Source of the DNA: Nanobdellota archaeon
GTDB taxonomy: Archaea; Nanobdellota; Nanobdellia; Pacearchaeales; GW2011-AR1
NCBI GenBank assembly: GCA_038045985.1
Contig: JBBSXA010000009.1
Coordinates: 1 to 53,888 of the forward strand
Direction: 5' to 3'
Length of the DNA: 53,888 bases
The translations under genes and the position numbers were made by a program. Positions 362 to 20,635 of the stretch are shown in pieces; the first letter of the stretch is position 1; each line of letters opens with the position of its first letter. The notes beneath the pieces are model-generated. The model was given only the letters and a program-made list of their open reading frames with translations, was not told where the DNA came from and did not search any database.

Positions 362-1048
362 ATGGAAACAACTAAAGTTTTGATGGTTATTGCTGTTGCG
401 GCAGTTTTTGCCGCAGCTATTGGGTTGTTTGTAAATCTTGGGTTTTTGGCTAATCTCTCTTCTGTGGGAAGAGTTTCAACTGATGTAGGCAACGCTACTT
501 TATATGTTCAAGGAGTTGCAGATATTGTGTTTATAAAAAACCTTATCAATTGGAGCACCGGACAGGTTGATGATGCTCAAGCTGGTTGCAGTATTACTCC
601 CGCTTCTCCCGCTATTCTTACTGCAATTTTTCCTACTGGAACAATTCAGTGCGGCACATGGCAGGCTCAAACAGGGCTTACTTTGCAGAATAGAGGAAAT
701 ACTCCTGTGAGCGTTAAGCTGAGATCAAGTAATAATGCAACGGGTGGAACTATAGGGCCTTTTATAGGAACTAGTGTTCCTGGAGATATTCCTTTATTGG
801 TTTATGATTGGAGAGTTGCAAATAACCAGTCTGGATCTTGCAATGCTACAATGGGGAATTTAGGGCCGACAACATTTGCTCCTGTCAATTTCACTGTAGG
901 CACAGGTCAAGGAACAATTATATGTGCTAATTTGACAAGCATAGCTACAGCTAGGCAATTGAATATAGAGTTTAATGTGACTATTCCTACAAGCGCACCT
1001 GTAGGTCAGAAGTTAAGCCAGATCACAGCAGAAGCATTTGTTATTTAA
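362..1048 (+). CDS. secreted/anchored beta-rich protein, candidate fibre or sheath subunit
   Basis: N-terminal hydrophobic segment. Gly/Thr/Asn-rich body with N-x-S/T sequons. C-terminal motif IPTSAPVGQKLSQITAEAFVI resembles the ends of the 35588 protein and of the 30036 protein. Confidence 0.55.
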   Translation: METTKVLMVIAVAAVFAAAIGLFVNLGFLANLSSVGRVSTDVGNATLYVQGVADIVFIKNLINWSTGQVDDAQAGCSITPASPAILTAIFPTGTIQCGTWQAQTGLTLQNRGNTPVSVKLRSSNNATGGTIGPFIGTSVPGDIPLLVYDWRVANNQSGSCNATMGNLGPTTFAPVNFTVGTGQGTIICANLTSIATARQLNIEFNVTIPTSAPVGQKLSQITAEAFVI

Positions 1049-1104
1049 TTTTTATTTTTTATATTTTCGCAACATATAAAAACTTATTTCGTTATTATTC
1101 TTTT

Positions 1105-2268
1105 ATGGTTTTTGTAAAAGGGGCTTTAGCGGTGTTTTTTGCTTTTGGAATATTTATTTTTAGCATTGAGGGAATTTTTGCTTTGGGAGTCAGCCCTGCC
1201 AAGATTGAAATGAATTTTGAGCCTGGCCTTGAAAAAGATATAAGCTATCAGGTTTTTGGGGGAAACCCTAATGCTGAACTTCAGATTTACGCCAGCGGCG
1301 ATTTGAAAAATTATATTACTTTTGACAAGACAACACTCTCTGGAGAGGGAGGATCTTTTACCGCGCATTTAAAGCTGCCTGACAGCCTTGAAGTGCCTGG
1401 AAGAAATTTTGTTTACATTGGAATCGGGGAAAAAGTTGATCCAGAATTGATACAAGGGCAGATTGGAACTGTTGTTGCCATCAATGTTCTTATAAATGTG
1501 TATGTTCCGTATCCCGGGAGATATCTTGAGGTTGATCTTAAATCCAGCGATGCTAATGTCGGCGAGCCGGTTAGATTCGAATTGAATTTGGAAAGCAAAG
1601 GAGAAGAAGAGATAAATGTCTCGCCTGCAATACAAATTTATTCTGGAGACAAGTTTGTTGAAAATCTTTATTTCTCAAGCAGGCTTATACAAAGCCAGGA
1701 GAAAATCGGCTTAAAGAAAGAATTAGACACTTCCGGTTATAATCCAGGAGTTTACAGGGCTGTTGCTGTTGTTGATTACGGCGTTTTGGCAAGAGATGAA
1801 GAGCAGTTTAGAATTGGGGAGTTAAAAATAGATTTAATTAATTATACACGGCAAGTTGGAATTGGAGGAATAAGGAAGTTTGAACTTGAGATTCAGAGCG
1901 GCTGGAATGATGTTATTGACGGCGCTTATGCTGATATTTATTTTTCTAATCAATCAGGAATTTTTGGAAATTTTAGGACTACTACAACCACTTTAACACC
2001 TTGGGAAAAAAAGAAAATCGACGGATATTTTGACTCGTCTGGGCTCTCTGTTGGAATTTATGACGCGAATATAACACTTTATTATTTTGGAAGGAATGTA
2101 GGAAGCAGCTCAAGCCAGAGCGTAAAAGTAGAGTTTGTGGAAGGCAAGTCCAATATAGGATTGATTTATTATACGGTTTTGGGAGTGGTTATTTTAATAA
2201 TCATTCTCTTTGTTGCCTGGAAGTTTCTTAGGAGGAAAAATGGAAGAAAAATTAGATGGAAAGAATAG
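1105..2268 (+). CDS. surface protein with repeated beta-sandwich-like modules, C-terminal TM helix and basic tail
   Basis: Signal-like N-terminus, then LGVSPAKIEMNFEPG... The C-terminus is YYTVLGVVILIIILFVAWKFLRRKNGRK. Confidence 0.6.
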   Translation: MVFVKGALAVFFAFGIFIFSIEGIFALGVSPAKIEMNFEPGLEKDISYQVFGGNPNAELQIYASGDLKNYITFDKTTLSGEGGSFTAHLKLPDSLEVPGRNFVYIGIGEKVDPELIQGQIGTVVAINVLINVYVPYPGRYLEVDLKSSDANVGEPVRFELNLESKGEEEINVSPAIQIYSGDKFVENLYFSSRLIQSQEKIGLKKELDTSGYNPGVYRAVAVVDYGVLARDEEQFRIGELKIDLINYTRQVGIGGIRKFELEIQSGWNDVIDGAYADIYFSNQSGIFGNFRTTTTTLTPWEKKKIDGYFDSSGLSVGIYDANITLYYFGRNVGSSSSQSVKVEFVEGKSNIGLIYYTVLGVVILIIILFVAWKFLRRKNGRKIRWKE

Positions 2269-2677
2269 AAGGATTTATATTTTGGTTTTAGCATTGCTTT
2301 TTGTAAGCGTGGCTGTTTTTCTTGTTTCTTTTTACATTGACTCAAGAAAGGTTTTGGATGTTAAAGAATTAAATATGAGCCTGACTGTTGGAAATATACC
2401 TGGTTTTGATGTGAGCAAGGACAGACTTGGTTTTGGAGAGCTTGCAATTGGAAACAGCGCCTCCAGAAATGATGTTTATATAACAAATCCTTATGATTTC
2501 CCTATAGAAGTTGATTTTTTAGCAGAAGGAAATATAACTAATTTGATAATATATACAAAAAAACTTGAGCTTTCTCCGGGAGACAAAAGATCTTTTTCTG
2601 CTTCAACTGTAGTTATCTCCAACGAGACTCCTGGATATTATGGTGGGAAATTAATTATTACTTTTAAAAGAGCATAA
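2240..2677 (+). CDS. N-terminally anchored beta-rich protein (start moved to the ATG behind AGGAGG)
   Basis: AGGAGG at 2230-2235, 4 nt before ATG 2240. Hydrophobic RRIYILVLALLFVSVAVFLVSF. The tracked 2210 start would overlap the upstream gene by 59 nt. Confidence 0.5.
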   Translation: MEEKLDGKNRRIYILVLALLFVSVAVFLVSFYIDSRKVLDVKELNMSLTVGNIPGFDVSKDRLGFGELAIGNSASRNDVYITNPYDFPIEVDFLAEGNITNLIIYTKKLELSPGDKRSFSASTVVISNETPGYYGGKLIITFKRA

Positions 2678-2708
2678 TTATTATAAGGAAGCGTTTTTAG
2701 TTAGACTC

Positions 2709-3173
2709 ATGAAAACTGATTTTAAGCTGGGCGTCATATTTATTTTGCTCATTGTCAATTTGGTCTTGCTTCTCTTCATTGGATTCAAGTCAACAGGTTT
2801 TTCTGTTTCTGAAAATAATATTTATTCTTACGATTTTATAAAAGAAGATAAAATTCATTCCAATTTTACTGGAGTTTTTTTTGAGATAGGGAATGCAACT
2901 TTTAGCAGGTTTGAAGATTCTGGAAGCATGGGTTCTTGGCTGGGAGAAGATGCGACTAGTGTTGAGTTTAAGCCAAGAACAGAAGAAGATGTTCATATTG
3001 GTGATGTAATTTCATTCAAGCAAGAAGGAATTTTTATTGTGCATAGAGTAATTGAAAAAGGAATAGATTCTGAAGGAGTTTATTTTGTGACTCGCGGAGA
3101 TAATAATTTCCTTTCTGATGAAAAGATTAGATTTTCCGACATAGAAGGCGTTCTTGTTGCAGTGATATATTGA
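2709..3173 (+). CDS. type I signal peptidase, Sec11/SipW (ER-type) family
   Basis: N-terminal TM, then the catalytic boxes SGSM (Ser), IVHRV (His) and TRGDNN, in the canonical order and spacing. Confidence 0.75.
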   Translation: MKTDFKLGVIFILLIVNLVLLLFIGFKSTGFSVSENNIYSYDFIKEDKIHSNFTGVFFEIGNATFSRFEDSGSMGSWLGEDATSVEFKPRTEEDVHIGDVISFKQEGIFIVHRVIEKGIDSEGVYFVTRGDNNFLSDEKIRFSDIEGVLVAVIY

Positions 3174-3240
3174 TACACTGTGATAAATTTACGGCTTCTT
3201 TGTGGGATAAGTTTTTATATGCTTTTTCCTTATTTCTTTG

Positions 3241-5247
3241 ATGAAAAGAGGTGGGAAAAATTCTTGGAGTGCAAAGCAGATTTTCTTGCTGGTTTTTCTT
3301 TTAGCTGTTACTTTTTTTAATATTTATTATGTATTTTTTTCCTTGAATACGCCTGTTACCGGCTATGGAGTCTCTTCTACAGGTTTTGTTGCATTAACAG
3401 TGGAGGGCGCACCTATAATTAATATTTATGAGCCAAAAAACATGACTTATAATTTCAGTGTCGGCGAGTCCTTGATATTAAATTTGAGTGTTGATGCGAA
3501 TGTGGGCATACAAAGCTGGTGGTATGATCTTTATGATTTTAAGCATGATTTCTGGTTAAATGACATTGCCTTTTCTCCTAATACTACGTTTAATGCGTTT
3601 AGATGGAGCAATCGTATTTTTGTTCATGCTCTTTCTTTAGGGAATTCTGAGTCTGTGAAGAATGTGACTTTCTTTGTTTTTGTGCCTAACTCTCCTCCGG
3701 TAATTTATGATGTTCCAAGCCAGATATTTATCTGCGAGGCTCAGCAGCTTGTGCATGATTTTTATGCTGTTGATGATGACGAAGATGATTTGAGAGGAGC
3801 TATTTTTCCAGAGAATCCGTTTTTTGTCATCCCTGAATTTGGAGTCAGGGAAAATATCACAAGGGTGAACTTTCAGATGGTTTCTGGTCCGCTGAGCAAG
3901 AGCAGCGCAGGAGGCCTTAATGGAGTATACAGAAACTTTTCAGAGCTGATTAGCATCACTGATTTTAATCTTTTAGATTCAAAAAATACTGTAATAACCG
4001 TCATAGAAATAAACAATCCTCCATTTATTGAAGATGTTGGAGTTAAGACTATTTGGAATCAAGGAGAAAATTCTACTTTTTATGAAGAGGTTTTTTCCAG
4101 TGATTATGAGTATTCTTTAGGACACGGAAATTTAATTTACAATCTAACTATATGGAATTCCAGCAGTCAGATAGTTAATTTGTTTGGGATAAATCAGTCT
4201 GGAGTTATTAATTTCACTGCTGCTAACCAAACTCAAATTGGCGTTTACGATATTCAGGTTTGCGTTGAAGATACTGGCCTTCAAAATCCTTATTCTTTAA
4301 TTCAGACTTATTGCAATCAAACCGGAGGATCTATGACTGTTTGTGACAATTTTAGCTTGACTGTCACTAATCAAAATAGAGCTCCTACGATTGTGAATTA
4401 CTCTCCTGAAAATTTGAGATTTAATGCTTCTGGAGCAGATACGATTAAATTTAATATTTCAACTTATGATCCTGATGGCACTAAACCAGATGCTTATTGG
4501 TATGTTGACGGTGTTTTTAAGGAAAAAGATGAAGGCAGTTTTTTTGATGAATTTGATTATATTTTTGGCTGCGAGATTTTTGGGGTGCATAATGTTACAG
4601 TAAATATTACCGATGGTTTGTTAAATGATTCTTTATCATGGATGGTTTCTGTTGGGAATGTTGTCTGCCCTTCTGGCAGCTCACCTAGCGGAGGAGGTGG
4701 AGGCGGGGGAGGCGGTCTTTCTTGCTTTTCTAAATGGGGCTGTGATACATGGAACTTGTGCCAGAACGCCCAGACTTCCCTTAATGTAGGGCTTCTTTCT
4801 GGAGAAGATTACAGGGATATTGAAAGCTCTTGCGCTGAACAGGAATTTGGAGATGAAGCGTGCGGCTTTCAGATAAGAGGATGCAGTGATCTTAGCATGT
4901 GTTTTTTAAGTTCAGGCAAGCCTGCAGAACTGCAATCTTGCGCTTATACTGAGAACCCTAGCTGTGAAGATGGAATAAAAAATTGCCATGACTCTGGATG
5001 CGAATTCCTTGTTGATTGCGGAGGTTCATGCAATGCGTGCCCGACATGCTCTGACAAAATAAAAAATCAGGGAGAAGAAGGAATTGATTGCAGCGGTCCG
5101 TGCCCTTGGAGGTGCATTCCTGAAGTTCCTCTGTTAAAAAGAAGCACAACGCTTTATATCTTTCTGATTATAGCGTTAATTCTTATAATAATTGTTATAA
5201 TAAGATTGATAAGAGTTTTGAAATATAATAGAGAGACTGGAAGGTAG
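3241..5247 (+). CDS. cadherin-like surface adhesin with Gly8 linker, Cys-rich C-terminal module and TM anchor
   Basis: Signal anchor. Motifs NSPPVI / NNPPFIEDVG / NRAPTI sit at module boundaries. Paralogous to the 36941-38875 protein. GGGGGGGG linker, about 30 Cys in the last 150 aa, ending ...IIIVIIRLIRVLKYNRETGR. Confidence 0.75.
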   Translation: MKRGGKNSWSAKQIFLLVFLLAVTFFNIYYVFFSLNTPVTGYGVSSTGFVALTVEGAPIINIYEPKNMTYNFSVGESLILNLSVDANVGIQSWWYDLYDFKHDFWLNDIAFSPNTTFNAFRWSNRIFVHALSLGNSESVKNVTFFVFVPNSPPVIYDVPSQIFICEAQQLVHDFYAVDDDEDDLRGAIFPENPFFVIPEFGVRENITRVNFQMVSGPLSKSSAGGLNGVYRNFSELISITDFNLLDSKNTVITVIEINNPPFIEDVGVKTIWNQGENSTFYEEVFSSDYEYSLGHGNLIYNLTIWNSSSQIVNLFGINQSGVINFTAANQTQIGVYDIQVCVEDTGLQNPYSLIQTYCNQTGGSMTVCDNFSLTVTNQNRAPTIVNYSPENLRFNASGADTIKFNISTYDPDGTKPDAYWYVDGVFKEKDEGSFFDEFDYIFGCEIFGVHNVTVNITDGLLNDSLSWMVSVGNVVCPSGSSPSGGGGGGGGGLSCFSKWGCDTWNLCQNAQTSLNVGLLSGEDYRDIESSCAEQEFGDEACGFQIRGCSDLSMCFLSSGKPAELQSCAYTENPSCEDGIKNCHDSGCEFLVDCGGSCNACPTCSDKIKNQGEEGIDCSGPCPWRCIPEVPLLKRSTTLYIFLIIALILIIIVIIRLIRVLKYNRETGR

Positions 5248-5289: not shown

Positions 5290-8200
5290 ATGGGGGTTAA
5301 AAGGAAAAGAGGAATTTTCGTTTTAGTTGCGTGTCTTTTTTTTATAATCATTCAGTTTGGAACTATTTCTGCTACTGATCTTCCTCCGGAATCCAGTGCC
5401 CCTTACCCTGACACCGGAACTTTTGTCCCAAGACAAGGGGAAGTAGGGGTTAGAGGAAGCATTGGAATAAGTTTGTATTCTGGGGCAGAGATTTTTATGT
5501 ACTCTTTATCTGTTCCACAGGGAACAAATTCTCTTAAACCAACACTGGAACTTTTTTACAATAGTCATCAATCAAAACTAAGGCAAGATTACATTGGAGG
5601 AGGTTGGTCATTAACACAAAACTATATAGAGAGATTAGTTAATCATTCTTCTTCAAATATATCTGATGATAAATTTGTTCTAGTTTTAAACGGGAATTAT
5701 CAAAAACTTGTTTTTTCCTCTCTTGATCAGAGATATCATACAGAAGTGGAAAGCTTTATGCATATAACAAATCTCTCTGGAGGAGATAATGCCAATGGAC
5801 AATACTGGATTGCTAAAACAAAGGATGGTACATCATACAGATTTGGTTTTATAAATAATTCTGAGTTGATTTCAAATTTACATAATTATACTGTAAGATG
5901 GAATCTTGATCTTGTTAATGATACATATAACAATTCAATATTTTACAGTTATCTTGAAGATCCTTTTACAAATGATAGCGGAACATCTTACTTAGACAAG
6001 ATTGAGTATAACAATGATAAAAGCAGGAAAATTGAGTTTTTGTGGGAGTCAGCAGATAGGCCAGACTTAATTACAACATATGAAGAAGGAAATAAAATCA
6101 GCAATTCTAGGCGATTAAAAGAGGTAATTGCAAGTGCAAATAATTCTTTGGTAAGCAGATATGTAATAGAATATATAAATTTTGAGCCGATTTCTGAATT
6201 GACTTTTATTTCTAACATAACTGAATATGGTAGTGATAATTCCAGTTCACTTTCTCCTACAAAATTTGAATATGATTTTTCTAGTGGGGCTATATGGGAT
6301 GGTGATACAAACGTGAATATGTCTTATCCTATGTGCAGTGGATATTATGATGACCCTCCTGGAACACCAAGAGTGTCTAATCTTTGCTTTGGTGGAGCTG
6401 ATGAGGGCAATATAAGATTCGCTGATGTAAACGGTGATGGTTTAATTGATATTCTGAAAAGTACTGAAGGGAAAGATGCGAGTTCGTGTCCGGGGGGAAC
6501 AGAGCCTTGCGGAGAGTCTGAAATATGGATAAGCAATGGCACTGGATGGACGAATCAAACTAGTTGGAATAAATCCTATCCAAAATGCAGTGGGTATTAT
6601 GGAGATTCTGTAACAACCAGAGAATCTGAGTTTTGCTTTGGAGGATTGGATGAAGATAACATTAGGCTAGAAGATGTGAATGGTGATGGGTTAATTGATA
6701 TCATGAAAAGTAGTGGGGGAATAGATGCGAGTTCTTGTCCTGGGGGAACTAAATCTTGTGGGAGTTCCAGAATTTTAATTAATAATGGAACTGGGTGGGA
6801 TGAAAACACAGCTTGGAATAGGTCCTATCCCAAATGCAGTGGGTCTTCAGAGGATCCGGCAGGGACTCCAAAAGAATCCAAATTATGTTTTGGAGAGAAT
6901 GAGGCTGACAATATTAGGTTTGCAGATGTAAACGGTGATGGATTATTTGATATCTTATACAGTTCTGGAGGTATAGATGGGAGTTCGTGCCCAGGTGGAA
7001 GTCAACCTTGTGGAGAGTCTGAGATATGGATAAATAATGGCAGTGGTTGGGACATAAACGCAACATGGAATAAGTCTTATCCTAAATGTAGCGGAGCTTT
7101 TGGAGATTCTGTAACAGCAAGGCAATCTCAATTTTGCTTTGGGGATAGCGATTCAGATAATATTAGATTTGCTGATATGAATGGTGATGGATTATTTGAT
7201 ATTTTGTATAGTTCAGGAGGAATAGATGCAGGTTCATGTCCGGGAGGAACTCAACCCTGTGGAAGCTCTAGAACTTTAATCAATAATGGCACTGGATGGA
7301 CTAATGATACTAATTGGAAATACCCTAGATGTAGTGGATCTTCCAGTGATCCTGGAGGCACGCCTAAGCAATCTGAACTTTGTTTTGGAGATAGTGATTC
7401 TGATAATATTAGATTTGCAGATGTTAATGGAGATGGATTATTTGATATTTTATATAGTTCTGGAAGCATAGATACAACCTCATGTCCTGGAGGCACTGAG
7501 TCTTGTGGTATATCAATCATTTGGGTAAATAACGGTTCTAGTTGGATTAATCAAACTAGTTGGAATAAGTCCTATCCAAAGTGTAGTGGATATTATGGAG
7601 ATTCTGTGACAACTAGAAAAGCTGATCTTTGTTTTGGAGAGAATGATGCCGATAATATAAGGTTTAGTGATGTTAATGGCGATGGTTTATTTGATATATT
7701 GTTTAGTTCTGAGGGAGTAGATATAGGATTTTGCCCAGGAGGAACTGAAAACTGTGGCAGATCAAGGGTTTATATGAATAATGGAACAACTTTTTTGTTA
7801 AATAAAATAACAAATGAATTTGGAGGCATTAGTCAAATCCATTATAAAGAATCTACATTATTAGATAACACTGGAGATGATAATTTTAGTGATATTGGAT
7901 TTAATATTTGGATAGTGGCAAACAAGACGGAAGATAATGGGATGGATGGAAGCCATAGTGTTCAATCAATTACAACATATAATTATTCCGGAGGAAAATA
8001 TGAGTATTATCCAAAAAATGAGTTTAGAGGATTTAATTATGCTGAAGAGATAATTGGAGACAAAGTAATCAATCATTGGTTTTATCAGGATGATGCAAAA
8101 AAGGGCATAGAATATGAAACTGAAGCCTTTGACAACCAAAGCAATCCTTATTCTAAAGTCTTGCAAACATGGAATTCCACTGATATGGGGAATTACTACG

Positions 8201-10614
8201 TTGTAAATCTTTTAGAAGCTTCAGAGCTGACTTATGATGGAAATCCTTTAAGCCCAAGAGTCAAAAATATCTCTTATGAATATGATAATTTTGGAAATAT
8301 TGTTAAAATACACAATAAAGGGGATATTGATAATTTAAATGATGACAGGTATGAGTATTACAACTATTTAAATAATTCAGCAAAATGGATAGTAAACAAA
8401 CTAAAGAATTACACATTGCTTAAGTTTGATAATTCAACAAAGACAAAAGAAAGGCTTTACAGCTACGACAACCTGGCTTACGGCCAGGCTCCGACTAAGG
8501 GAAGCCTGACAAAAGAAGAACACTGGCTTAGTGCTGGGACTAATCCAGTAATAAATTACAGCTATAACAGCTTTGGAAATTTAATCAATCAGACAGATGC
8601 AAGAGGCTATGTGACTAAATACAGATATGACCTCACAGGCACTTTTGTCAAAAATATAACTGATCCTAAAGGATTTATAACCCAATATGATTACGACTTA
8701 GGAACAGGAAACTTGAATTATATTTTAGACTTAAACAGCAAGTTTACAAATTACACTTATGATATTTTTGGAAGGATAACAAGGGAAATTCAGCCATATG
8801 ACTCTTTAAGCTTCCCTACAAAGAATTATACATATGAGTTTGATGGAATTGCTCCAGAGAAAATAAAAACAAGCCAGAGAGAGCAGAATAACACTGCAAA
8901 TACCTATGACAGCTATGAATTTTATGATGGTTTTGAAAGATTAATTCAGACTAAGACAGAAGCAGATAATAATAAAGAAATTGTCAATGATGTTTATTAT
9001 GACAGCATTGGAAGAGTTGATAAAAAAAGCAATTCGTATTTTACAGCTTTTGACAGCAACTATACAAATGCAAACTCAACTGTAAACTTCACAAAATATT
9101 CTTATGATATTTTAAATAGAGTTGTTAACACAACAAACTCTGATTCAACTTCAAGCAATGCAACTTACTCCCATTGGAACGTTACTTTTTATGATGAGAA
9201 TGGAAACAGGCTGGATCATTCTATGAATGCTTACAATCAAATAGTTGCAATAAGAGAATACAATCAAAACCAGACTTACATAACAAAATACACTTATGAT
9301 TCATCAGACAACTTACTAAGTATAACTGATTCATTAAATAATACATGGAACTATACTTATGACAGCCTCAGCAGAAAAACCTCTATGAAAGATCCTGATA
9401 CAGGAATCAGCAATTACAGCTATGATGCAAATGGCAATTTAATCCAGCAAATCTCTGGAGGCGGCAACCTCATAACAGGCGATAATTTCTATCGCGAATA
9501 TGACAATTTCGGCAGATTAAAAGCAATCTACGAAGGAAACGACAACAGCACATTAATTGAGCAATACACTTATGATCCTAACGGAGAGAGAATAAAAACC
9601 TTCAATAATATTACAAACACAACAACATACACTCCATTCAGAGAGTTCATGCAGATAAGAAATTCTTCTGGCATTTTTAATTACACTTATATTTATGACA
9701 ATGATATTTTAGTAGCTCGTATCAACCCAGATGGAAGCAAATGGTTTTATCATGCAGATCATCTTGGCTCGACGACGCTGATAACAAACCAGAGTGGAGG
9801 TATAGTAGAGAACACCTTTTACTTACCCTATGGAGAGGTAGATAGTGGGGGAACGCAGGAAAAGAAATTGTATGAAAACAAAGAATTTGATTTATCAACA
9901 GGACAATATTACTACGGAGCTAGATACTATGACCCATACAAACAAATCTTTATTCAGCCTGACAGCATAATACCTAATGTGTATGATCCGCAGCAGTTGA
10001 ACATATACTCGTTCAAAAGAACAAATCCGTATACTTATGTGGATCCGAGTGGGCATTCTATAATAGATTTTGCTACTCTCCTTGGAAACTATGTAACAAA
10101 AAAGTTTGGCTATTGGTTATTAGGAAAATCTTATGAGGGTGCCACTAGTAAGATTGAAGCACCCAAAGGGAGCAAGTTTTATGCAGACTCAGTTGATATT
10201 AGTATTGGGGGAATTAGTACGGCAACGAAGGTCGTTAGTAAGGCTGATGATTTAGCAGATGCATTTAAATTTTTGGATAAAGGAGAGAATATTGGAAAGG
10301 GAGCTAGTAAAGTTGATGAAGTTGCTGGCATTGGTAAAAATTTTGGTAGTGGGATGACAATAGAAAAAATAGATCCTAATAAGATAAGTCATATCTTACA
10401 ATCTCAACACAATTGGGGAAAGGTCGTTGATAATCCTGATAACTGGGATCAGATTTCTAAGGTTATTGACGATGTTTTGAAAAGTGGAAGTAAAATTCCC
10501 CATAGTTCACAGCCTAATATAGATGTTTATACAAAACAAATAAAAGGACAAACAGTTGAAGTTAGGTTTAATAATAAATATGGAATAGAAAATGCTTTCG
10601 TACAAAATGGATAA
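5290..10614 (+). CDS. Rhs/YD-repeat polymorphic toxin with TcB/TcC-like architecture
   Basis: In order: SpvB/TcdB-N-like LSVPQGTNSLKPTLELFYNSHQS...GGGWSL; six FG-GAP modules (DVNGDGLxDI); YNYSGGKYEYYPKNEFRGFNY; many YxYDxxGN repeats; Rhs core YHADHLGSTTLITNQSG...YYGARYYDPYKQIFIQPDS...NPYTYVDPSGH; then a 186-aa unrelated tip. Confidence 0.9.
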   Translation: MGVKRKRGIFVLVACLFFIIIQFGTISATDLPPESSAPYPDTGTFVPRQGEVGVRGSIGISLYSGAEIFMYSLSVPQGTNSLKPTLELFYNSHQSKLRQDYIGGGWSLTQNYIERLVNHSSSNISDDKFVLVLNGNYQKLVFSSLDQRYHTEVESFMHITNLSGGDNANGQYWIAKTKDGTSYRFGFINNSELISNLHNYTVRWNLDLVNDTYNNSIFYSYLEDPFTNDSGTSYLDKIEYNNDKSRKIEFLWESADRPDLITTYEEGNKISNSRRLKEVIASANNSLVSRYVIEYINFEPISELTFISNITEYGSDNSSSLSPTKFEYDFSSGAIWDGDTNVNMSYPMCSGYYDDPPGTPRVSNLCFGGADEGNIRFADVNGDGLIDILKSTEGKDASSCPGGTEPCGESEIWISNGTGWTNQTSWNKSYPKCSGYYGDSVTTRESEFCFGGLDEDNIRLEDVNGDGLIDIMKSSGGIDASSCPGGTKSCGSSRILINNGTGWDENTAWNRSYPKCSGSSEDPAGTPKESKLCFGENEADNIRFADVNGDGLFDILYSSGGIDGSSCPGGSQPCGESEIWINNGSGWDINATWNKSYPKCSGAFGDSVTARQSQFCFGDSDSDNIRFADMNGDGLFDILYSSGGIDAGSCPGGTQPCGSSRTLINNGTGWTNDTNWKYPRCSGSSSDPGGTPKQSELCFGDSDSDNIRFADVNGDGLFDILYSSGSIDTTSCPGGTESCGISIIWVNNGSSWINQTSWNKSYPKCSGYYGDSVTTRKADLCFGENDADNIRFSDVNGDGLFDILFSSEGVDIGFCPGGTENCGRSRVYMNNGTTFLLNKITNEFGGISQIHYKESTLLDNTGDDNFSDIGFNIWIVANKTEDNGMDGSHSVQSITTYNYSGGKYEYYPKNEFRGFNYAEEIIGDKVINHWFYQDDAKKGIEYETEAFDNQSNPYSKVLQTWNSTDMGNYYVVNLLEASELTYDGNPLSPRVKNISYEYDNFGNIVKIHNKGDIDNLNDDRYEYYNYLNNSAKWIVNKLKNYTLLKFDNSTKTKERLYSYDNLAYGQAPTKGSLTKEEHWLSAGTNPVINYSYNSFGNLINQTDARGYVTKYRYDLTGTFVKNITDPKGFITQYDYDLGTGNLNYILDLNSKFTNYTYDIFGRITREIQPYDSLSFPTKNYTYEFDGIAPEKIKTSQREQNNTANTYDSYEFYDGFERLIQTKTEADNNKEIVNDVYYDSIGRVDKKSNSYFTAFDSNYTNANSTVNFTKYSYDILNRVVNTTNSDSTSSNATYSHWNVTFYDENGNRLDHSMNAYNQIVAIREYNQNQTYITKYTYDSSDNLLSITDSLNNTWNYTYDSLSRKTSMKDPDTGISNYSYDANGNLIQQISGGGNLITGDNFYREYDNFGRLKAIYEGNDNSTLIEQYTYDPNGERIKTFNNITNTTTYTPFREFMQIRNSSGIFNYTYIYDNDILVARINPDGSKWFYHADHLGSTTLITNQSGGIVENTFYLPYGEVDSGGTQEKKLYENKEFDLSTGQYYYGARYYDPYKQIFIQPDSIIPNVYDPQQLNIYSFKRTNPYTYVDPSGHSIIDFATLLGNYVTKKFGYWLLGKSYEGATSKIEAPKGSKFYADSVDISIGGISTATKVVSKADDLADAFKFLDKGENIGKGASKVDEVAGIGKNFGSGMTIEKIDPNKISHILQSQHNWGKVVDNPDNWDQISKVIDDVLKSGSKIPHSSQPNIDVYTKQIKGQTVEVRFNNKYGIENAFVQNG
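6290..7800 (+). repeat. six tandem ~83-aa FG-GAP-like modules (in-gene tandem repeat, ~250 nt period) with four conserved Cys each
   Basis: Repeated W-N-K-S-Y-P-K-C-S-G ... C-F-G ... D-N-I-R-F-A-D-V-N-G-D-G-L-F-D-I ... S-C-P-G-G-T-x-x-C-G ... N-N-G-T-G-W. Odd and even modules alternate (DPxGTP/CGESEIW versus GDSVTxR/CGSSR). Confidence 0.85.
9616..9968 (+). repeat. copy A of a ~353-nt direct repeat (Rhs core coding sequence)
   Basis: Aligns base by base with 11689-12041. Includes long identical runs, e.g. tatgacaatgatattttagtagctcgtatcaacccagatggaagcaaatggttttatcatgcagatcat. Confidence 0.9.
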
Positions 10615-11083
10615 TAGCAGTTTAATTATAGATATTGAAAGAGGAGATTATTATAATGCAAAAAAGAAAATGAAACAAATTAAATTTTTGGAATTTAAAA
10701 ATTTGCTTTTTGATTATACCCATATCAATGAAAATAACAACATACTTAAATTTTTAAAATATTTATTAAAAAAAGAAAAATCTAAGAAAAAATTAGTAAA
10801 GTTATACTTGCTTGCTTCTGGAATTGTCGAATCTCCACCATATCTTTACAAACTTAAGAATGCTTATAAACTATCTTTAATTTATCTAAGAAAAGCACTT
10901 AGATTAGATCCAAGCAATATTGTGGTTAAGTCCTGCATTTTATTTCTATATGGCTCTCCAGGAGTAAATTTAAAAGAGAAGGAAATTGAAATAATAGCAA
11001 AAGAAGTTTTAGAACAAGAGTCAAAAAATAAAATTGCCAAGAAGGCTTTGGACTATTTAGAAGGGAAAGCTAAAAATAAATAA
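10607..11083 (+). CDS. putative cognate immunity protein (helical, TPR-like)
   Basis: The ATG at 10607 overlaps the Rhs stop (aATGGATAAt). The position immediately after the toxin tip is the canonical immunity slot. No family recognised. Confidence 0.5.
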   Translation: MDNSSLIIDIERGDYYNAKKKMKQIKFLEFKNLLFDYTHINENNNILKFLKYLLKKEKSKKKLVKLYLLASGIVESPPYLYKLKNAYKLSLIYLRKALRLDPSNIVVKSCILFLYGSPGVNLKEKEIEIIAKEVLEQESKNKIAKKALDYLEGKAKNK

Positions 11084-11102: not shown

Positions 11103-11678
11103 ATGTCCGAAAGTAAATACAACTTAAAAAAGATAGATGGTTGGTTAATCTTCTTCATAGTAACAATCATCTTTTTTCTACCTGTGTTAAATATCTATGA
11201 GTTCTTTAAAAATCCAATTTTTGGAATTGGAGGATATTTTGACTTATTTGGCATGGTCACTGCTATGATTTCATCTGGAATTTTTCTTTTATTTAAAAAA
11301 AGTTACTCAATAACCTTTACAAAGGCAGTATTAATTTCCTTTTTTATTGCTACAGTAGTTTATTTTCCATTAAAAGGATCTATTCTGGTAATAAATATTC
11401 TTTATCCAATAATTTGGTTTGTTTATTTTAGTTATTCTAAAAAAATGAATGTAATATATGGAAAAATAAAACCTCTTAAAAATGGAAAACTAGTTTTACC
11501 AATTTTTTCAATGATTTATTCCATAATCTCTCCAATTTTAGGATTAGTCATGAGTATTTTTTCTTTGAAACAAATTAGAAAAAATAAAAGATTAAAAGGT
11601 TTTAGATTATCTGTTTTTGCATTAGTAATTTCAATTATTTTGATTATCTTTGCGATCTTAGATTTAATATTTATTTAA
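11103..11678 (+). CDS. multi-pass membrane protein (about 5 hydrophobic segments)
   Basis: ORF track; hydrophobic throughout. Lies between the immunity candidate and the orphan Rhs core. Confidence 0.5.
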   Translation: MSESKYNLKKIDGWLIFFIVTIIFFLPVLNIYEFFKNPIFGIGGYFDLFGMVTAMISSGIFLLFKKSYSITFTKAVLISFFIATVVYFPLKGSILVINILYPIIWFVYFSYSKKMNVIYGKIKPLKNGKLVLPIFSMIYSIISPILGLVMSIFSLKQIRKNKRLKGFRLSVFALVISIILIIFAILDLIFI

Positions 11679-11679
11679 A

Positions 11680-12102
11680 ATGAAATCAAACACAACAACC
11701 TACACTCCATTTAGAGAGTTCATGCAGATAAGAAACTCTTCAGGAGTTTATAATTATACTTACGTCTATGACAATGATATTTTAGTAGCTCGTATCAACC
11801 CAGATGGAAGCAAATGGTTTTATCATGCAGATCATTTAGGTTCAACAACTTTGATTACAAATCAGTCTGGAGGTATAGTAGAGAACACCTTTTACTTACC
11901 CTATGGAGAGGTGGATAGCGGCGGAACGCAGGAAAAAAGGCTTTATGAATCTAAGGAGTTTGACAGTGCAACAGGGCAGTATTATTATGGCGCAAGATAC
12001 TATGACCCATACAAACAAATCTTTATTCAGCCTGACAGCATTGAGAATTCAAAAGAGTTAAAATGGAAAAGCAATTTATGGTTAAAAGGGCTGAAAAAAT
12101 AG
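11680..12102 (+). CDS. orphan Rhs core fragment (140 aa) lacking the DPxG cleavage motif and any toxin tip
   Basis: About 90% aa identity to residues encoded at 9616-9968 of the main rhs gene. Homology ends exactly at ...IFIQPDSI, followed by 19 unrelated residues and a stop. Confidence 0.75.
   Translation: MKSNTTTYTPFREFMQIRNSSGVYNYTYVYDNDILVARINPDGSKWFYHADHLGSTTLITNQSGGIVENTFYLPYGEVDSGGTQEKRLYESKEFDSATGQYYYGARYYDPYKQIFIQPDSIENSKELKWKSNLWLKGLKK
11689..12041 (+). repeat. copy B of the ~353-nt Rhs-core direct repeat
   Basis: See copy A at 9616-9968. Confidence 0.9.
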
Positions 12103-12104
12103 AA

Positions 12105-13253
12105 ATGAAAAAGGAAAAAATAGAGGAAGGAAGAGAGGAGAATAGAATCGTTCTGATTCTGGTGGCAGTTGCCTTATCATTGTTAATTCTTCCAAATATC
12201 TCAGCATCAATTCAGAATTTATCTTATGACAGCGGAAAGAATACAATCAATACAAGTTATGACAGCAAAAACAGAATTCTGAATCAGACAGGAGATTCTG
12301 ACTGGAATAAATATTTTTATGATGTTGGCATGAATGACACAATAACCAATATAAGCAATGATGATAATGTTGCTATTAAGTATGAATATGATAATAAAAA
12401 GAGAGTTATTAAAGAGACAAAAGAAATTGACGGCTTAATATTTGAAAGAAAGAGCTCATTTGATTCCTTTGATAGGCCAGTAAATTTATATGGCTCAATG
12501 AATACAATGAATTTTACTTATGGAAACAATTCATTGGTTTCAGCCATATTAAATGTAATTAGCTCAATATTCTATAACGAGCAGAAACAGCCTTTAAATA
12601 AGACTTACAACAATAATCTTGCCACTAATTTCACTTATTATGTTAATTTTAGACTCAAGGAAATCAAAACAGGCAATAAACAGGGCTTATTTTATAGTTA
12701 TGATAATGCTGGAAATGTAAAAAACATTAATGATACTGCAAACTTAAGAGTTTATTCCATGTCTTATGATAATTTAAACAGATTAATAAGCGCCGACATA
12801 AAAAATAATGCAAATTCAAGCGATAATCCTATTAATTACAACTATAACTCAATAGGCAATATATTGAACAGCACTTCGCCCAGCAGAAATTTAACTTATT
12901 ATTACGGCCAAACCAGAGTTCATGCACCAATTTCTATAGATGATGGAGCTTCTTCACAGCTAATTGATGTTTACAATTTAACGCATCTCAATACACAGGC
13001 TGTTAAAAGACTAACTTTTGGCTTCTTTATCCAGAATCTTAACAGCTCAACAATGAATAATATTTCTTGGAATTTTAATACAGGGCAGAGTAATATAACT
13101 TCCGTAACAAATTCAACACTTATTTCAAACAAGAGCAAATATGTTATTGTAGAATATGAATATCAGGGAACTGGCATAGAGAATCGAACAGTGATCGCAA
13201 CAGCGTCATCAAATGGCATTTCAGACTCAGAATCAATTGAGGTGATAGCATGA
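12105..13253 (+). CDS. short secreted YD-repeat protein
   Basis: Signal anchor IVLILVAVALSLLILPNISA, then YD-type repeats (LSYDSGKN, SYDSKNRIL, YEYDNKKRVI, YSYDNAGNV, MSYDNLNRL). ATG 12105 lies 2 nt after the orphan's stop. Confidence 0.65.
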   Translation: MKKEKIEEGREENRIVLILVAVALSLLILPNISASIQNLSYDSGKNTINTSYDSKNRILNQTGDSDWNKYFYDVGMNDTITNISNDDNVAIKYEYDNKKRVIKETKEIDGLIFERKSSFDSFDRPVNLYGSMNTMNFTYGNNSLVSAILNVISSIFYNEQKQPLNKTYNNNLATNFTYYVNFRLKEIKTGNKQGLFYSYDNAGNVKNINDTANLRVYSMSYDNLNRLISADIKNNANSSDNPINYNYNSIGNILNSTSPSRNLTYYYGQTRVHAPISIDDGASSQLIDVYNLTHLNTQAVKRLTFGFFIQNLNSSTMNNISWNFNTGQSNITSVTNSTLISNKSKYVIVEYEYQGTGIENRTVIATASSNGISDSESIEVIA

Positions 13254-15199
13254 AAATAAATCTGGATAAAAAGAGAAAAGTGACGTTAGGAATATTCATA
13301 GTTTTAACTATTTTAATATCTTTGATTTTGTTTGTTAAATCTTTAGGTGAAACAAGCTTAAATTTCAATGATTTAAATTCTCAATGGGAAATAAATAATG
13401 AGAAACTAATTTATTACTTCGACAAGGATTCTGGCTTAAAATTTAGTAATAATAAAGATTATTATGAAAATAGGTTAGAGATTTGCGTTTATATTGGAGC
13501 AAATGAAAATTGTATTGATAAGCTTAACTTGAATCAGCCAATTTACGACGGTAAAAACATAGATTTAATAGGAACTTATGAAAATGAATTATTTGTCTTT
13601 AATTTAACTTACAGAGTTTCCAATGAAATAAGGCAGTTAAGCTGGGAAAACATGGAAATCAAGCATGAGCTTGAATTAATACCTAGATTGACATTAAAAA
13701 CAGGTATAAATGAAGATGTTGGCATAAAATTCAGGTTTAAAGATATTAATATGGAAAATACTTCAGAAAATGATTATATTTATATTGGCAAGAAGAAATA
13801 CTTTTTGAATCAAAACTTGGATTTAGAATTTGAAAATATAACTCAAATATTAGAAAGCAAAGACACAACTTATACAATTAATCAAGATTGTTATAATTCT
13901 TGTGAGTTAGATAATATAAATTGCGAAGATAGATGCAGAATTGCTGATGAGAAAGTTGTAGGATATATCTATAAGAGCTTGCCTTATTTTATGATCCAAG
14001 AAAGAAATGAGTTTCAATGGCTTTTATGGGATGAAAGCCTTGATTATAAATTAAATATTAAGACAGAAGAAACTCAATACAATGCTCCAGTAACTTTGGA
14101 GATTAATTTCGGAAAAGTCTCTGAAGCAACAACTTCTTTGTACTGGTATGATCCTCAAGTCAAATTTTACGATAATTTTGACGATAATTCCTTATCTTCC
14201 AATTGGACGGAGATTAATCAAGATGCAGGAAGCGATTTAAAAGAAGAAAATCAGATTTTGAATTTAACAACAGGGCCAGGATATGCCCATACAGGTACAA
14301 CTGCTTTGATAGGAGATAAATGCCCTCTTGCTGATGGATGCAATCCAATAGAATATGACAAATCTGGAAATTATACAATAAGCTTTGACTGGAAATTTAA
14401 CTGGAATGGGTCAAAAGCAGGGCATGATGGAGTATGGATAATGCATCCAGATGCTCATATGAATCCATCTGATGGTGGAAACAGAGAGCTGACCTATTAT
14501 TCAGGAGTTATGGGAAGAACACTTTTCTACTCTTTAGGAAGAGGATGCGCTGCAGGAACAAATGAAAGCGTATTAATTGCTGCTGATGACAATTCAAGCT
14601 CCTGGCATTGCACTTGGGAGCATGAAGTTGCAAGAAATAACAGCAATATTTTTACAGAGGCTGCTTGGTATTCTGTAAAGATACTTGTTAATTGGAATAC
14701 AAATTATACTGAAGTAAGAGTGAATGACAACATTGTTGCCAATGGAACAATTAATTCAACATGGGCAAGTGCAATAGGCAGTAAATTTAGAGTTGAGATG
14801 CATGTATCGCATTATCCTTACACAAGCGCAAGCGAGAATGACAATTATGACAATTTCACAATTTATGATTACTGGGTTTCTGCTTCATCTGCAAATGAAT
14901 CTCATGGCAGAAATGCAATTGTTGAAGGAATAAACAACATAATTCCCAATTCAACAATTTACACTGATTTTGAAGTTGATATAAGGTATTTCAATGGAAC
15001 TCAGGCAAGAGGCAGTTTTGATAAAGTTGCTTTCTTAAATAATCAAACATGGGCTTTCAATTACATAACAGGAAGTGAAAGCTCAACAAATTTAAACAGC
15101 AGTTCATATAAAATATTCAATGTTTGGGAGAAAGGCGGACTGACTTACAGCCAGATTGTCAGCCAGGTTCAGAGTTATATTAATCAGACAAAAATATAG
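13250..15199 (+). CDS. secreted protein, C-terminal half possibly a concanavalin/LamG-like lectin fold
   Basis: ATGA overlap with the upstream gene. Signal anchor. Segment FYDNFDDNSLSSNWTEINQD...LNLTTG is typical of LamG-like domain starts (weak, by eye). Confidence 0.55.
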   Translation: MKINLDKKRKVTLGIFIVLTILISLILFVKSLGETSLNFNDLNSQWEINNEKLIYYFDKDSGLKFSNNKDYYENRLEICVYIGANENCIDKLNLNQPIYDGKNIDLIGTYENELFVFNLTYRVSNEIRQLSWENMEIKHELELIPRLTLKTGINEDVGIKFRFKDINMENTSENDYIYIGKKKYFLNQNLDLEFENITQILESKDTTYTINQDCYNSCELDNINCEDRCRIADEKVVGYIYKSLPYFMIQERNEFQWLLWDESLDYKLNIKTEETQYNAPVTLEINFGKVSEATTSLYWYDPQVKFYDNFDDNSLSSNWTEINQDAGSDLKEENQILNLTTGPGYAHTGTTALIGDKCPLADGCNPIEYDKSGNYTISFDWKFNWNGSKAGHDGVWIMHPDAHMNPSDGGNRELTYYSGVMGRTLFYSLGRGCAAGTNESVLIAADDNSSSWHCTWEHEVARNNSNIFTEAAWYSVKILVNWNTNYTEVRVNDNIVANGTINSTWASAIGSKFRVEMHVSHYPYTSASENDNYDNFTIYDYWVSASSANESHGRNAIVEGINNIIPNSTIYTDFEVDIRYFNGTQARGSFDKVAFLNNQTWAFNYITGSESSTNLNSSSYKIFNVWEKGGLTYSQIVSQVQSYINQTKI

Positions 15200-15255: not shown

Positions 15256-15450
15256 ATGGCAAGGAAACCAAAATTTAAAGATTCTGTAGTTAAAATTGAT
15301 TCTGTTCTAAATGAAAATATAGAAGAATTTATTTCTGATGACGAAAATAGACTAAAATTTGTTAGTAAGAAACATTTTGTGGATTTAGCAATCCAGAATT
15401 TTTTTAAGAAAATTAAAGAAGATGGAGATACTAAGAATGAGAAACATTAA
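15256..15450 (+). CDS. small ribbon-helix-helix (CopG/MetJ-like) DNA-binding protein
   Basis: 64 aa. Basic N-terminal strand (RKPKFKDSVVKIDS) followed by two predicted helices. Overlaps the start of the giant adhesin gene. Confidence 0.45.
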   Translation: MARKPKFKDSVVKIDSVLNENIEEFISDDENRLKFVSKKHFVDLAIQNFFKKIKEDGDTKNEKH

Positions 15451-19408: not shown

Positions 19409-20573
19409 AGGTGAGGAAATAAAGAGCTGGCTTAAAGAAGCCATTCGAAGAGGGTATTCTGATTTGGAAATTAGAGATCTTCTTAATAGCAATGGATATT
19501 CTCCAGAAGAAATACATGGTGTTTTTGTGATGAAGAGAAAATTTAAGAAAAATAAATTAATTTTTCAAAAGGACAAAGTTAAGCTTAACAGATTTTCTAA
19601 GACGTCAGAGCAAGTTCCTGAAGAGATTAGAGAAGTTTATGATCTTCTTCTGCAGACTAGAATAGAAGTCGCGAAAGTTATTATAGGGCAGAAAGATGTT
19701 GTTGATGCTTTTATGTGCGCATTGCTTTGCGACGGCCATGTTTTGCTTGAAGGAGTTCCCGGAATAGCCAAGACTCTTCTTGTTAAGACTTTGGCGCAGG
19801 CATCTGGCTGCCTGTCCCATAGGATTCAGTTTACAGTTGATCTTCTTCCCAGCGATATTGTCGGGATAACTACTTACACTCCTGAAAAAGGCTTTGAGGT
19901 AATCAAAGGCCCTGTTTTTGCTAATTTTATTATTGGTGATGAAATAAATAGGAGTCCTCCAAAAACTCAGTCAGCTCTTATAGAAGCAATGCAGGAGAAG
20001 CAAGTTACTATTGGAAAGCAGACTTTTCCCCTGCCAAGCCCTTTTTTTGTCATGGCAAACAACAATCCATTAGAGAGCAGTGGTGTCTATGATCTTCCTG
20101 AGGCGCAGGTGGACAGATTTTTGTTTAAGGTTATTATGGGCTACCCAAATGGAAGTGAAGAGGTCAAGATTATGGAAGATAACATGACTCTTAGAAAGTT
20201 TGAGAGTTTTGACATTAAGCCTATCCTTTCGGCTGAAAAAATATTGGAAATGCAGGAAATTACAAAAAAAATTCATATGGATGATAAAATCAAGAATTAT
20301 ATTGTAAGGCTTGTTGAAAAGACAAGAAAAAGAGATTTTGACAACGGGAAATATATCGAGTGGGGCGGGAGTCCGAGAGCGAGCATTGGAATCTTTATCG
20401 CTTCAAAAGCCTGGGCTTTAATGAATGGAAGAAACTATGTTATTCCCCAGGATGTCAAGGACATAGCGCACTATGTTCTCCGCCACAGAATAATATTAAA
20501 TTACAAGGCAAGGGCAGAAGGAATAACTTCCGACAAGATTATAGATGAGATTTTTGCGATAGTTAATATTTGA
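19398..20573 (+). CDS. MoxR-family AAA+ ATPase with ~70-aa N-terminal extension
   Basis: GHVLLEGVPGIAKT (Walker A), ANFIIGDEINR (Walker B), QSALIEAMQEKQVTI, and the GGSPRA C-terminal lid. Overlaps the adhesin stop by 11 nt. Confidence 0.85.
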   Translation: MEDRGEEIKSWLKEAIRRGYSDLEIRDLLNSNGYSPEEIHGVFVMKRKFKKNKLIFQKDKVKLNRFSKTSEQVPEEIREVYDLLLQTRIEVAKVIIGQKDVVDAFMCALLCDGHVLLEGVPGIAKTLLVKTLAQASGCLSHRIQFTVDLLPSDIVGITTYTPEKGFEVIKGPVFANFIIGDEINRSPPKTQSALIEAMQEKQVTIGKQTFPLPSPFFVMANNNPLESSGVYDLPEAQVDRFLFKVIMGYPNGSEEVKIMEDNMTLRKFESFDIKPILSAEKILEMQEITKKIHMDDKIKNYIVRLVEKTRKRDFDNGKYIEWGGSPRASIGIFIASKAWALMNGRNYVIPQDVKDIAHYVLRHRIILNYKARAEGITSDKIIDEIFAIVNI

Positions 20574-20635
20574 CGCAATTCTCTTATGGATTGTATATTC
20601 TGAAACATACAAAACTTTATAATTTATTTTATCTG

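Follow-up and report, generated by a model that had tools for sequence, protein, structure and literature searches.

A predicted Sec-exported, single-chain BC-type Rhs polymorphic toxin with a candidate immunity gene in a Pacearchaeota-like DPANN archaeon

Introduction

How might a toxin cocoon built like the B and C subunits of bacterial Tc toxins work in an archaeon, and by what route would it deliver its cargo? The question is raised by contig JBBSXA010000009.1 of a Nanobdellota archaeon (Pacearchaeales; assembly GCA_038045985.1), of which positions 1 to 53,888 were analysed as one stretch of DNA, referred to below as the window. At 5290-10614 on the forward strand the window carries a large open reading frame (ORF) that a previous inspection of the letters alone, here called the sequence-only reading, had taken for a TcB/TcC-type single-chain cocoon with an encapsulated, autoproteolytically released toxin. 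The predictions described here lend support to that view: the N-terminal half of the protein is modelled as TcB-like, the C-terminal half as TcdB2-TccC3-like, and its core aligns with that of TccC3.

Proteins of this general plan have been catalogued as the TcdB/TcaC class of polymorphic toxins, which combines a signal peptide, SpvB, an integrin-like propeller, RHS repeats and a variable toxin, and whose carriers include Euryarchaeota (PMC3482391). The propeller of TcB is six-bladed and forms the gate to which TcA binds (PMC6868009). One of the catalogued toxins, Ntox35, occurs with RHS repeats and is predicted to be an RNase of the BECR fold (PMC3482391); a Staphylococcus toxin of this family, which has H199 and H205 on its first helix and a cytosolic immunity protein, kills Listeria and needs H205 to do so (bioRxiv 10.1101/2025.07.24.666436).

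Here, we describe a computational analysis of the ORF, its relatives and its surroundings. With a probability that we put at about 0.8, the locus encodes a single-chain Rhs polymorphic toxin of the BC type that a Pacearchaeota-like DPANN archaeon exports through the Sec pathway, as well as the immunity gene that belongs to it.

Results

Domain organization of the 1774-residue protein

The ORF is intact, starts with ATG and encodes 1774 amino acids (aa); it is a real gene of the length first claimed for it, and the motifs quoted at that time recur in the translation in the same order and at the same positions. Its domain order was confirmed with profile hidden Markov models and with two structure models, whose local confidence is given as the predicted local distance difference test (pLDDT). 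From the N-terminus, the protein consists of a signal peptide, an SpvB-like domain, a six-bladed FG-GAP propeller, TcdB_midN, a YD shell, an Rhs core and a 185-aa tail. These parts, and the gene that follows them, are placed as follows.

5290..5376, plus strand: signal peptide or signal anchor, residues 1-29, MGVKRKRGIFVLVACLFFIIIQFGTISA followed by TD; read from the translation
5461..6273, plus strand: SpvB-like N-terminal shell domain, about residues 58-328; from Pfam SpvB, pLDDT and Foldseek
6310..7779, plus strand: six-bladed FG-GAP (integrin-like) beta-propeller, residues 341-830; from repeats, model and Pfam
7654..8052, plus strand: TcdB_toxin_midN region, residues 789-921; Pfam PF12256, 60.5 bits
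7780..9726, plus strand: YD/RHS-repeat shell, residues 831-1479; from RHS_repeat, YD_repeat_2x and a precomputed TEN_YD-shell match
9727..10056, plus strand: Rhs-associated core, predicted aspartyl autoprotease plug, residues 1480-1589; from TIGR03696 and alignment with TccC3
10057..10614, plus strand: polymorphic C-terminal cargo, 185 aa, 20.1 kDa, pI 7.8; a linker, then Ntox35
10592..11083, plus strand: candidate cognate immunity protein, 163 aa (158 aa from the ATG at 10607), helical, weakly tetratricopeptide repeat-like, pI 9.7

The putative signal, recognized by eye in the translation, has a basic n-region, a 17-residue hydrophobic core and a site between ISA and T. A lipobox reading of LVAC at residue 15 was rejected because the hydrophobic core runs 13 residues further, to that site. 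The following domain matches Pfam SpvB (PF03534) over residues 69-228 with 30.6 bits (E 2.6e-7; cut-off 22), a match visible only when the N-terminal 340 aa were scanned separately, and Foldseek pairs it with the SpvB N-domain 6p0x (E 1e-11, TM-score by target length [TMt] 0.61) as well as with TcB chains. A Sec-type signal followed by SpvB is thus what occupies the N-terminus, and no Pfam or NCBIfam match to a PAAR, prePAAR or VgrG-binding module was obtained.

The propeller is made of six repeats of about 83 aa, with six D[VM]NGDGL motifs that supply one D-x-N-G-D-G loop per blade, and it matches Pfam FG-GAP_3 (36.8 bits) and FG-GAP. In the predicted model it forms six four-stranded blades, with pLDDT of about 85-90 in the blade cores and 50-60 in the cysteine-rich loops. 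All 24 cysteines outside the signal lie within residues 349-822 (6334-7755), four per blade, spaced C-x16-C and C-x6-C. About 40% of the relatives described below have no propeller cysteines, and most others have about two per blade. Such cysteine-rich blades may stiffen a domain that TcB has to unfold for opening.

Folding was carried out on two overlapping halves, residues 29-1000 and 781-1774, using family alignments. The model of residues 29-1000 has a predicted TM-score (pTM) of 0.83, with pLDDT above 90 in the SpvB-like part. Its top 13 matches in the PDB are all TcB chains (TcdB1, TcdB2 and YenB; E 7e-37 to 2e-30, TM-score by query length [TMq] 0.55-0.62), the match after them reaches only 2e-14, and Rhs proteins of type VI secretion systems (T6SS) stand at about 1e-13; this large drop argues that the N-terminal half is TcB-like specifically rather than generically Rhs-like. 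Residues 781-1774 are modelled as an all-beta hairpin shell, mostly at pLDDT above 90, that matches TcdB2-TccC3 best (E 1e-30, TMq 0.43-0.46), with Rhs and teneurin shells next. The repeats of the shell score 91.4 bits with RHS_repeat and 39.5 bits with YD_repeat_2x.

The Rhs core matches Rhs_assc_core (TIGR03696) over residues 1511-1589 with 51.7 bits (cut-off 32.5), and its best sequence match in the PDB is TccC3 (E 4e-8). The QPDS motif contains D1558 and the VDPSGH motif D1585, and these two residues correspond in the alignment to the catalytic aspartates of TccC3, in its SSDP and DPDGL motifs. By counting in the aligned sequence, we take the latter to be D651 and D674 of TccC3; one of the fold matches, PDB entry 6h6f, is of the D651A mutant. 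Across 40 aligned family members neither aspartate column varies, and the similarity breaks off abruptly after D-x-x-G-x. The chain is predicted to be cut between H1589 and S1590, which would free the 185-aa cargo.

Searches with the SpvB, TcdB midN, FG-GAP, RHS_repeat and TIGR03696 profiles all gave matches. The SpvB/TcdB-N-like motif named by the sequence-only reading is upheld by PF03534 above its cut-off and by the 6p0x and TcB fold matches, its six blades by the six repeats and the six modelled blades, its run of YD repeats by RHS_repeat, YD_repeat_2x and the shell model, and its Rhs core by TIGR03696 above cut-off with both catalytic aspartates kept. Two of its claims have to be corrected. 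What had been called a midC-like stretch, YNYSGGKYEYYPKNEFRGFNY at residues 897-917, falls inside the TcdB_midN match, and TcdB_toxin_midC (PF12255) was undetected in the 1774-aa protein in a Pfam scan even at E<=1. Furthermore, the tail described as unrelated and 186 aa long carries Ntox35 above the cut-off and measures 185 aa from the predicted cut.

An Ntox35 cargo and its candidate immunity gene

Ntox35 (PF15534) matches residues 1694-1763 (nt 10369-10578) with 34.6-37.7 bits, against a cut-off of 23.6. A histidine pair is present as H-x5-H, in SH1701ILQSQH1707NW, with the same spacing as H199/H205 of the S. aureus toxin. The domain is also 38% identical (E 2e-16) to an Ntox35-like ORF in another locus (L019), and the link to a toxin comes from the Pfam profile plus one tblastn/BLASTP match. 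On these grounds the tail is predicted to end in a BECR-fold RNase domain whose histidine pair is intact.

The start of the next ORF, 10592-11083, overlaps the stop codon of the rhs gene. Its product has 61 representative homologues, most of them single-domain proteins of 143-165 aa. One homologue, P0127 (41% identical), begins in loci L016-L019 at 4 nt before the stop of the Ntox35-like ORF; a second Ntox35 fragment and a second immunity copy lie further on, and the contig of P0127 bears the bacterial markers TsaE, YacP and F-ATPase gamma. In L012/L013, homologue P0123 is preceded by the remnant KGYRVEVRLNENYGPNTVFVE and a stop, which matches the last 24 aa of the Ntox35 domain studied here. 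Because homologues directly follow Ntox35 domains or remnants in these two other independent contexts, ORF 10592-11083 is likely the immunity gene of the Ntox35 cargo. No toxin was found upstream of the immunity homologue in L020 and L021, so that the pairing, judged by gene order, is recurrent but not universal, which fits immunity genes that are also found as orphans. A further homologue, P0124 (L014, 7600-11400), is one of several small genes in a row, Barstar among them, on a 406-kb contig with TraC/TraG-like conjugation genes adjoining; this row looks like an immunity-gene island.

A large family with conserved bodies and unrelated tails

The homologue search gave at least 587 matches at E<=1e-5 among 8000 candidates scored. 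The best 120 relatives have E<=5e-187 and 33-49% identity. Named taxa were available for 18 relatives, 17 of them archaeal (Pacearchaeota 6, Woesearchaeota 5, Nanoarchaeota 4, Micrarchaeota 1, Altiarchaeota 1) and the eighteenth from Ignavibacteria; the contigs of several relatives measure 0.76-0.93 Mb. Ten loci came from scanning species-representative genomes, four in Woesearchaeota, one in Altiarchaeota, four in metagenome-assembled genomes labelled 'uncultured Methanosarcinales archaeon' and one on a 6.9-Mb Desulfobacter chromosome. In public annotation, relatives are called 'toxin TcdB middle/N-terminal domain-containing protein' or 'RHS repeat-associated protein'.

Several architectures occur among the best 120. 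The majority (76) are B-like, without a core and with an extra terminal YD segment; 15 have that segment followed by core and tail; in 26, the ORF of the window included, the shell runs straight into core and tail; and three fit none of these forms. The core is accordingly found in 41 of the 120, again counting the ORF of the window. In three loci, L003 (7989-14044), L009 (3-6592) and L011 (1-6236), a coreless B-like gene overlaps by 4 nt with the next gene downstream, of 393-416 aa and here called 'mini-C', in which about 130 aa of YD repeats precede an Rhs core and a tail of some 180 aa; more core-bearing cassettes lie further downstream. Proteins of the TcC type are far longer than these mini-C genes, 97% of them measuring 851-1050 aa (PMC7861908).

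Thirty-nine relatives align through residue 1589, after which their tails, 53-240 aa long, are mutually unalignable, with 12% mean column identity. A body that is conserved up to D-x-x-G and then continues into unrelated tails is that of a polymorphic toxin family. Few of these tails match known toxin families; AHH/HNH are among those that do, besides Ntox35. Relatives P0010, P0014, P0026, P0034, P0037, P0043, P0074, P0081 and others share a pre-toxin segment of about 50 aa, with the consensus IPVD..D.GF...D...L......N...L..D..GA..P..TG, ahead of different toxins, and many other tails open with Gly/Ala-rich, transmembrane-like stretches directly after the cut site.

Provenance of the gene

The archaeal character of the flanking genes, as claimed by the sequence-only reading, was confirmed for Kae1, L7Ae, S28e and L24e, and the best named relatives of Kae1 are from Pacearchaeota/Nanoarchaeota (60-73% identity). 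The Sec11-type signal peptidase that it had listed with them was not found, either by Pfam in any of the ORFs scanned or as an S-M-x-P motif in any ORF of more than 90 aa.

The contig of the window stems from a 0.1-um groundwater fraction (record name Hain_H43_01um). A second, independently assembled contig of 35 kb from Hainich groundwater encodes the identical protein, and the neighbouring 10 kb to either side of it are the same as well. The gene has a GC content of 0.35 and a GC content at third codon positions (GC3) of 0.27, equal to those of gyrA, gyrB and kae1, and its codon use correlates with that of housekeeping genes at 0.85. The tetranucleotide correlation between the gene and the rest of the window is 0.89, against about 0.96; the profile is continuous except for a single dip, to 0.60, at the internally repetitive propeller. 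In addition, the protein contains 57 N-x-S/T sequons where 28 are expected from its composition; 56 lie within residues 118-1464, and the cargo is free of them. Sequons are similarly enriched in the window's other secreted giants, while its cytoplasmic proteins match expectation. To the extent that sequence alone can show it, the contig is archaeal and non-chimeric; the independent assembly, continuous composition, sequon pattern and archaeal homologues all favour the genuine archaeal genome that had been proposed.

The downstream segment and the history of the locus

Three further features follow the candidate immunity gene.

11103..11678, plus strand: DUF4190 multi-pass membrane protein; Pfam DUF4190 at 27.8 bits, under the cut-off of 35
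11680..12102, plus strand: orphan truncated Rhs-core ORF, 140 aa; nt 11687-12041 copy nt 9614-9968
12063..13253, plus strand: stand-alone secreted YD-repeat protein, 396 aa, with signal peptide; from BLAST and a weak RHS_repeat match

The two core copies are identical at 309 of 355 nucleotides (87%), with sharp edges, and they bracket the toxin, immunity and DUF4190 genes. Over 117 codons they show 30 synonymous and 7 non-synonymous differences, a ratio which indicates that they diverged as working genes in different lineages. The orphan core keeps the first catalytic aspartate; the second aspartate and a toxin are absent, and the ORF ends 19 codons past QPDSI. A reading of the orphan as a spare toxin cassette was rejected on account of this early end and the missing toxin. 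Instead, the arrangement suggests that the toxin-immunity-DUF4190 tip was acquired by homologous recombination within the core, as in bacterial rhs loci, and that the orphan would be the scar of this event. The DUF4190 gene, lying within the bracketed segment, is possibly a second immunity gene or an accessory gene.

By BLAST, the product of 12063-13253 matches 91 of the 120 homologues at about residues 1200-1520, at their last shell segment, which the main ORF does not have; comparable stand-alone YD genes occur in three other loci (L007, L010 and L011). The next gene, 13250-15199, encodes a secreted protein of 649 aa whose C-terminus resembles a gene upstream of the relative in L005. The upstream genes at 362-5247 matched no Pfam family and have no counterpart beside relatives, and no conserved accessory or translocator gene emerged from this comparison.

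Other genes of the window

Several additional observations were made elsewhere in the window, in which no tRNA or Rfam match was found. Two predicted secreted giants of 1328 and 1798 aa, with weak Ig-like matches only, are encoded at 15422-19408 and 30036-35432 and contain 7.5 and 6.3 sequons per 100 aa, respectively, about 2.6 times the expectation from composition. Directly after the first of them, at 19398-23325, is a row of genes for a MoxR AAA+ ATPase, DUF58, VWA and BatA-like VWA proteins. On the minus strand at 25297-26318, a HEPN gene adjoins a nucleotidyltransferase (MNT) gene; a fused MNT-HEPN family has been described as unusually conserved in DPANN (PMC6393860). The gyrB gene at 46896-50072 is split by an intein (Intein_splicing, residues 455-859, with a weak HNH_3 match inside), and gyrA is at 51203-53677. 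Within 44789-45972, S28e has a poly-Q-rich N-terminal extension, and two ORFs without a family, 45182-45472 and 45453-45776, lie between S28e and L24e in an otherwise conserved L7Ae-S28e-L24e cluster.

Discussion

A model for the toxin and the question of delivery

Because of the signal, the 24 cysteines of the propeller and the sequons, 56 of 57 of which are situated in residues 118-1464, the protein is expected to be exported by the Sec pathway and to form an extracellular, glycosylated and disulfide-bonded shell. From the structures of TcB-TcC and Rhs proteins, the shell would close after export around the C-terminal 185 aa, the core would cut the chain after H1589 to leave the 20-kDa cargo free within the cocoon, and the propeller would shut the other end. 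More tentatively, contact with a target cell might cause the cargo to exit the cocoon, in a release that would not involve a TcA syringe, and to degrade RNA in the target cytoplasm, and the 163-aa immunity protein might protect the producer and its kin. The presence of an immunity gene suggests that cells like the producer are themselves exposed to the toxin, a point in favour of competition among relatives. A host archaeon or a bacterium would also be susceptible to an RNase, and the closest relatives of the toxin-immunity pair are bacterial.

Several results weigh against this model. As the sequence-only reading had noted, no TcA-like gene is present in the 54-kb window, and domain scans of its large ORFs gave no VRP1, TcA_TcB_BD or neuraminidase-like domain. 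At nine related loci, too, the rhs strand contains no listed ORF of more than 300 aa without Rhs-type segments, and no TcA-sized gene. The protein is without a shell segment of about 250 aa that 91 of the 120 relatives possess; 26 of the 120, itself included, share the short form. The cargo is modelled at pLDDT below 50 in the model of residues 781-1774, so that encapsulation is not directly visible. Finally, the 185-aa tail by itself had no match in a word-indexed search, and the Ntox35 match is a distant one.

A rival reading is a surface adhesin or scaffold like teneurin or the SPEARE proteins, with a shell and propeller that attach the episymbiont to its host and no longer any delivery of toxin. 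The absence of TcA or another translocator speaks for it. Teneurins retain a YD shell without toxin function, the BC-toxin-like region of SPEARE has been discussed as a host-interaction device (PMC6642349), and the 76 coreless proteins among the best 120 relatives have neither Rhs core nor toxin in the same chain. We nonetheless consider an adhesin unlikely, since the ORF retains both catalytic aspartates, an above-cut-off Ntox35 domain with its histidine pair and a syntenic immunity gene, since the tails are polymorphic across relatives, and since the coreless B-like genes of related loci are followed, at a 4-nt overlap, by small genes for core and toxin. The same absence could mean that TcA is encoded elsewhere and that the locus belongs to a true ABC (Tc) toxin with canonical syringe delivery: the window covers 54 kb of a genome of probably about 0.8-0.9 Mb, and the N-terminal half is TcB-like specifically, down to the six-bladed propeller, which in TcB serves as the gate for TcA binding (PMC6868009). 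This is improbable in our judgement. No TcA-type domain was seen in the window and no TcA-sized gene beside the nine related loci, the protein has a Sec signal of its own, and the widespread class built from signal peptide, SpvB, propeller, RHS and toxin has no obligatory TcA partner (PMC3482391). At about 7.5 kb, a TcA gene would moreover be a burden on so small a genome, and two disulfide-capable cysteine pairs per blade would probably impede the TcA-triggered unfolding and refolding on which gating depends.

A third explanation concerns the contig rather than the protein, namely that a bacterial Rhs/Tc fragment was mis-assembled or mis-binned into archaeal DNA. Rhs and Tc proteins are typically bacterial, a full-length relative of 38% identity is on the 6.9-Mb Desulfobacter chromosome (L003), the closest Ntox35-immunity pair stands in a bacterial context (TsaE, YacP and F-ATPase gamma), and the gene-window tetranucleotide correlation is slightly lowered (0.89 against about 0.96). 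Set against this are the independently assembled contig with the identical protein and 10 kb of the same neighbours on either side, a GC of 0.35 and GC3 of 0.27 shared with gyrA, gyrB and kae1, a tetranucleotide dip (0.60) limited to the propeller, sequon enrichment like that of other secreted proteins of the window, and closest homologues (37-49% identity) on contigs of Pace-, Woese-, Nano-, Micr- and Altiarchaeota, several of them 0.76-0.93 Mb long. A chimera is in our view very hard to credit, and the discussion below returns to the exported polymorphic toxin.

Comparison with known systems

TcB-TcC toxins such as TcdB2-TccC3 of Photorhabdus and YenB-YenC2 of Yersinia present the same order of SpvB-like domain, propeller, midN, RHS shell, aspartyl autoprotease core and hypervariable cargo. 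They comprise TcB and TcC, together about 2150 aa, whereas the archaeal protein is a single chain of 1774 aa with an Rhs-sized cocoon, about 1100 aa of shell outside the propeller. The latter also differs in having its own Sec signal and four cysteines per blade, in the undetected midC and in that no TcA was found. Its cargo is 20 kDa as opposed to about 30 kDa, and a predicted RNase accompanied by an immunity gene follows an anti-prokaryote logic, while the cargo of the Tc toxins is an anti-eukaryote enzyme.

The definition of the TcdB/TcaC class of polymorphic toxins (Zhang, Aravind et al. 2012, PMC3482391) is an exact fit, down to the downstream immunity gene. In that survey, Ntox35 was tied to the type II secretion system (T2SS) and RHS, not to the TcdB/TcaC route and not to archaea, DPANN being unsampled at the time. 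The S. aureus S8-BetaH-Ntox35 protein, a diffusible toxin, belongs to the same family and likewise combines a dedicated immunity protein with a pair of first-helix histidines at a distance of six residues (bioRxiv 10.1101/2025.07.24.666436); there the carrier is BetaH with an S8 peptidase and here it is an Rhs cocoon, and the likeness of the toxins is distant and by profile only.

Bacterial Rhs effectors, among them the T6SS proteins RhsA, RhsP and Tse15, share the YD cocoon, the TIGR03696 core, self-cleavage at D-P-x-G, polymorphic tips, immunity genes and downstream orphan cores. WapA is a bacterial Rhs protein that is Sec-dependent. The archaeal cocoon would be closed by a TcB-type propeller and SpvB, as modelled, rather than by an N-terminal plug, and it has no PAAR, VgrG-binding or prePAAR module. 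The SPEARE proteins of Nanohaloarchaeota (PMC6642349) are likewise surface giants of DPANN with a region predicted to be BC-toxin-like. They are 3,300-8,500 aa long (one is short, at 655 aa), have protease, adhesion and restriction-endonuclease parts and end in a C-terminal membrane anchor; unlike in the archaeal Rhs locus, no module of core, toxin and immunity gene has been described for them.

The architecture reported here is thus already catalogued, as the TcdB/TcaC class, and the protein is one of hundreds of relatives, the named ones of which are nearly all from DPANN. Less well described, it seems, are the extent of the DPANN branch, the occurrence of fused and split forms in it and the lack of TcA. 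Among the papers searched, we found none on a DPANN cocoon family and none pairing 'DPANN' with 'YD repeat'; the SPEARE paper alone touches the topic, and since a 2019 survey of archaeal polymorphic toxins lay outside the search, a prior description is possible.

Implications for DPANN archaea

The interaction of DPANN archaea with their neighbours is largely obscure, and few archaeal offensive systems have been tested. The locus described here is a compact and tractable candidate, offering a predicted cut site, two catalytic aspartates, two catalytic histidines and a candidate immunity gene. Cocoons like those of TcB/TcC are common in DPANN without a visible TcA, which makes one ask how a cocoon gated by a propeller is emptied when there is no syringe. 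A speculative answer, which we hold to be possible but doubtful, is that DPANN as a group possess a modular, TcA-independent BC-cocoon system, in fused forms and in split forms of B-like and mini-C genes, in which a Sec-exported, glycosylated cocoon would dock on an adjacent cell through its disulfide-stapled six-bladed propeller and release nucleases across an S-layer and single membrane by an undescribed kind of gating and entry. If this is true, the BC-cocoon system would be a main weapon of DPANN archaea in the conflict between episymbiont and host or between episymbiont and competitor.

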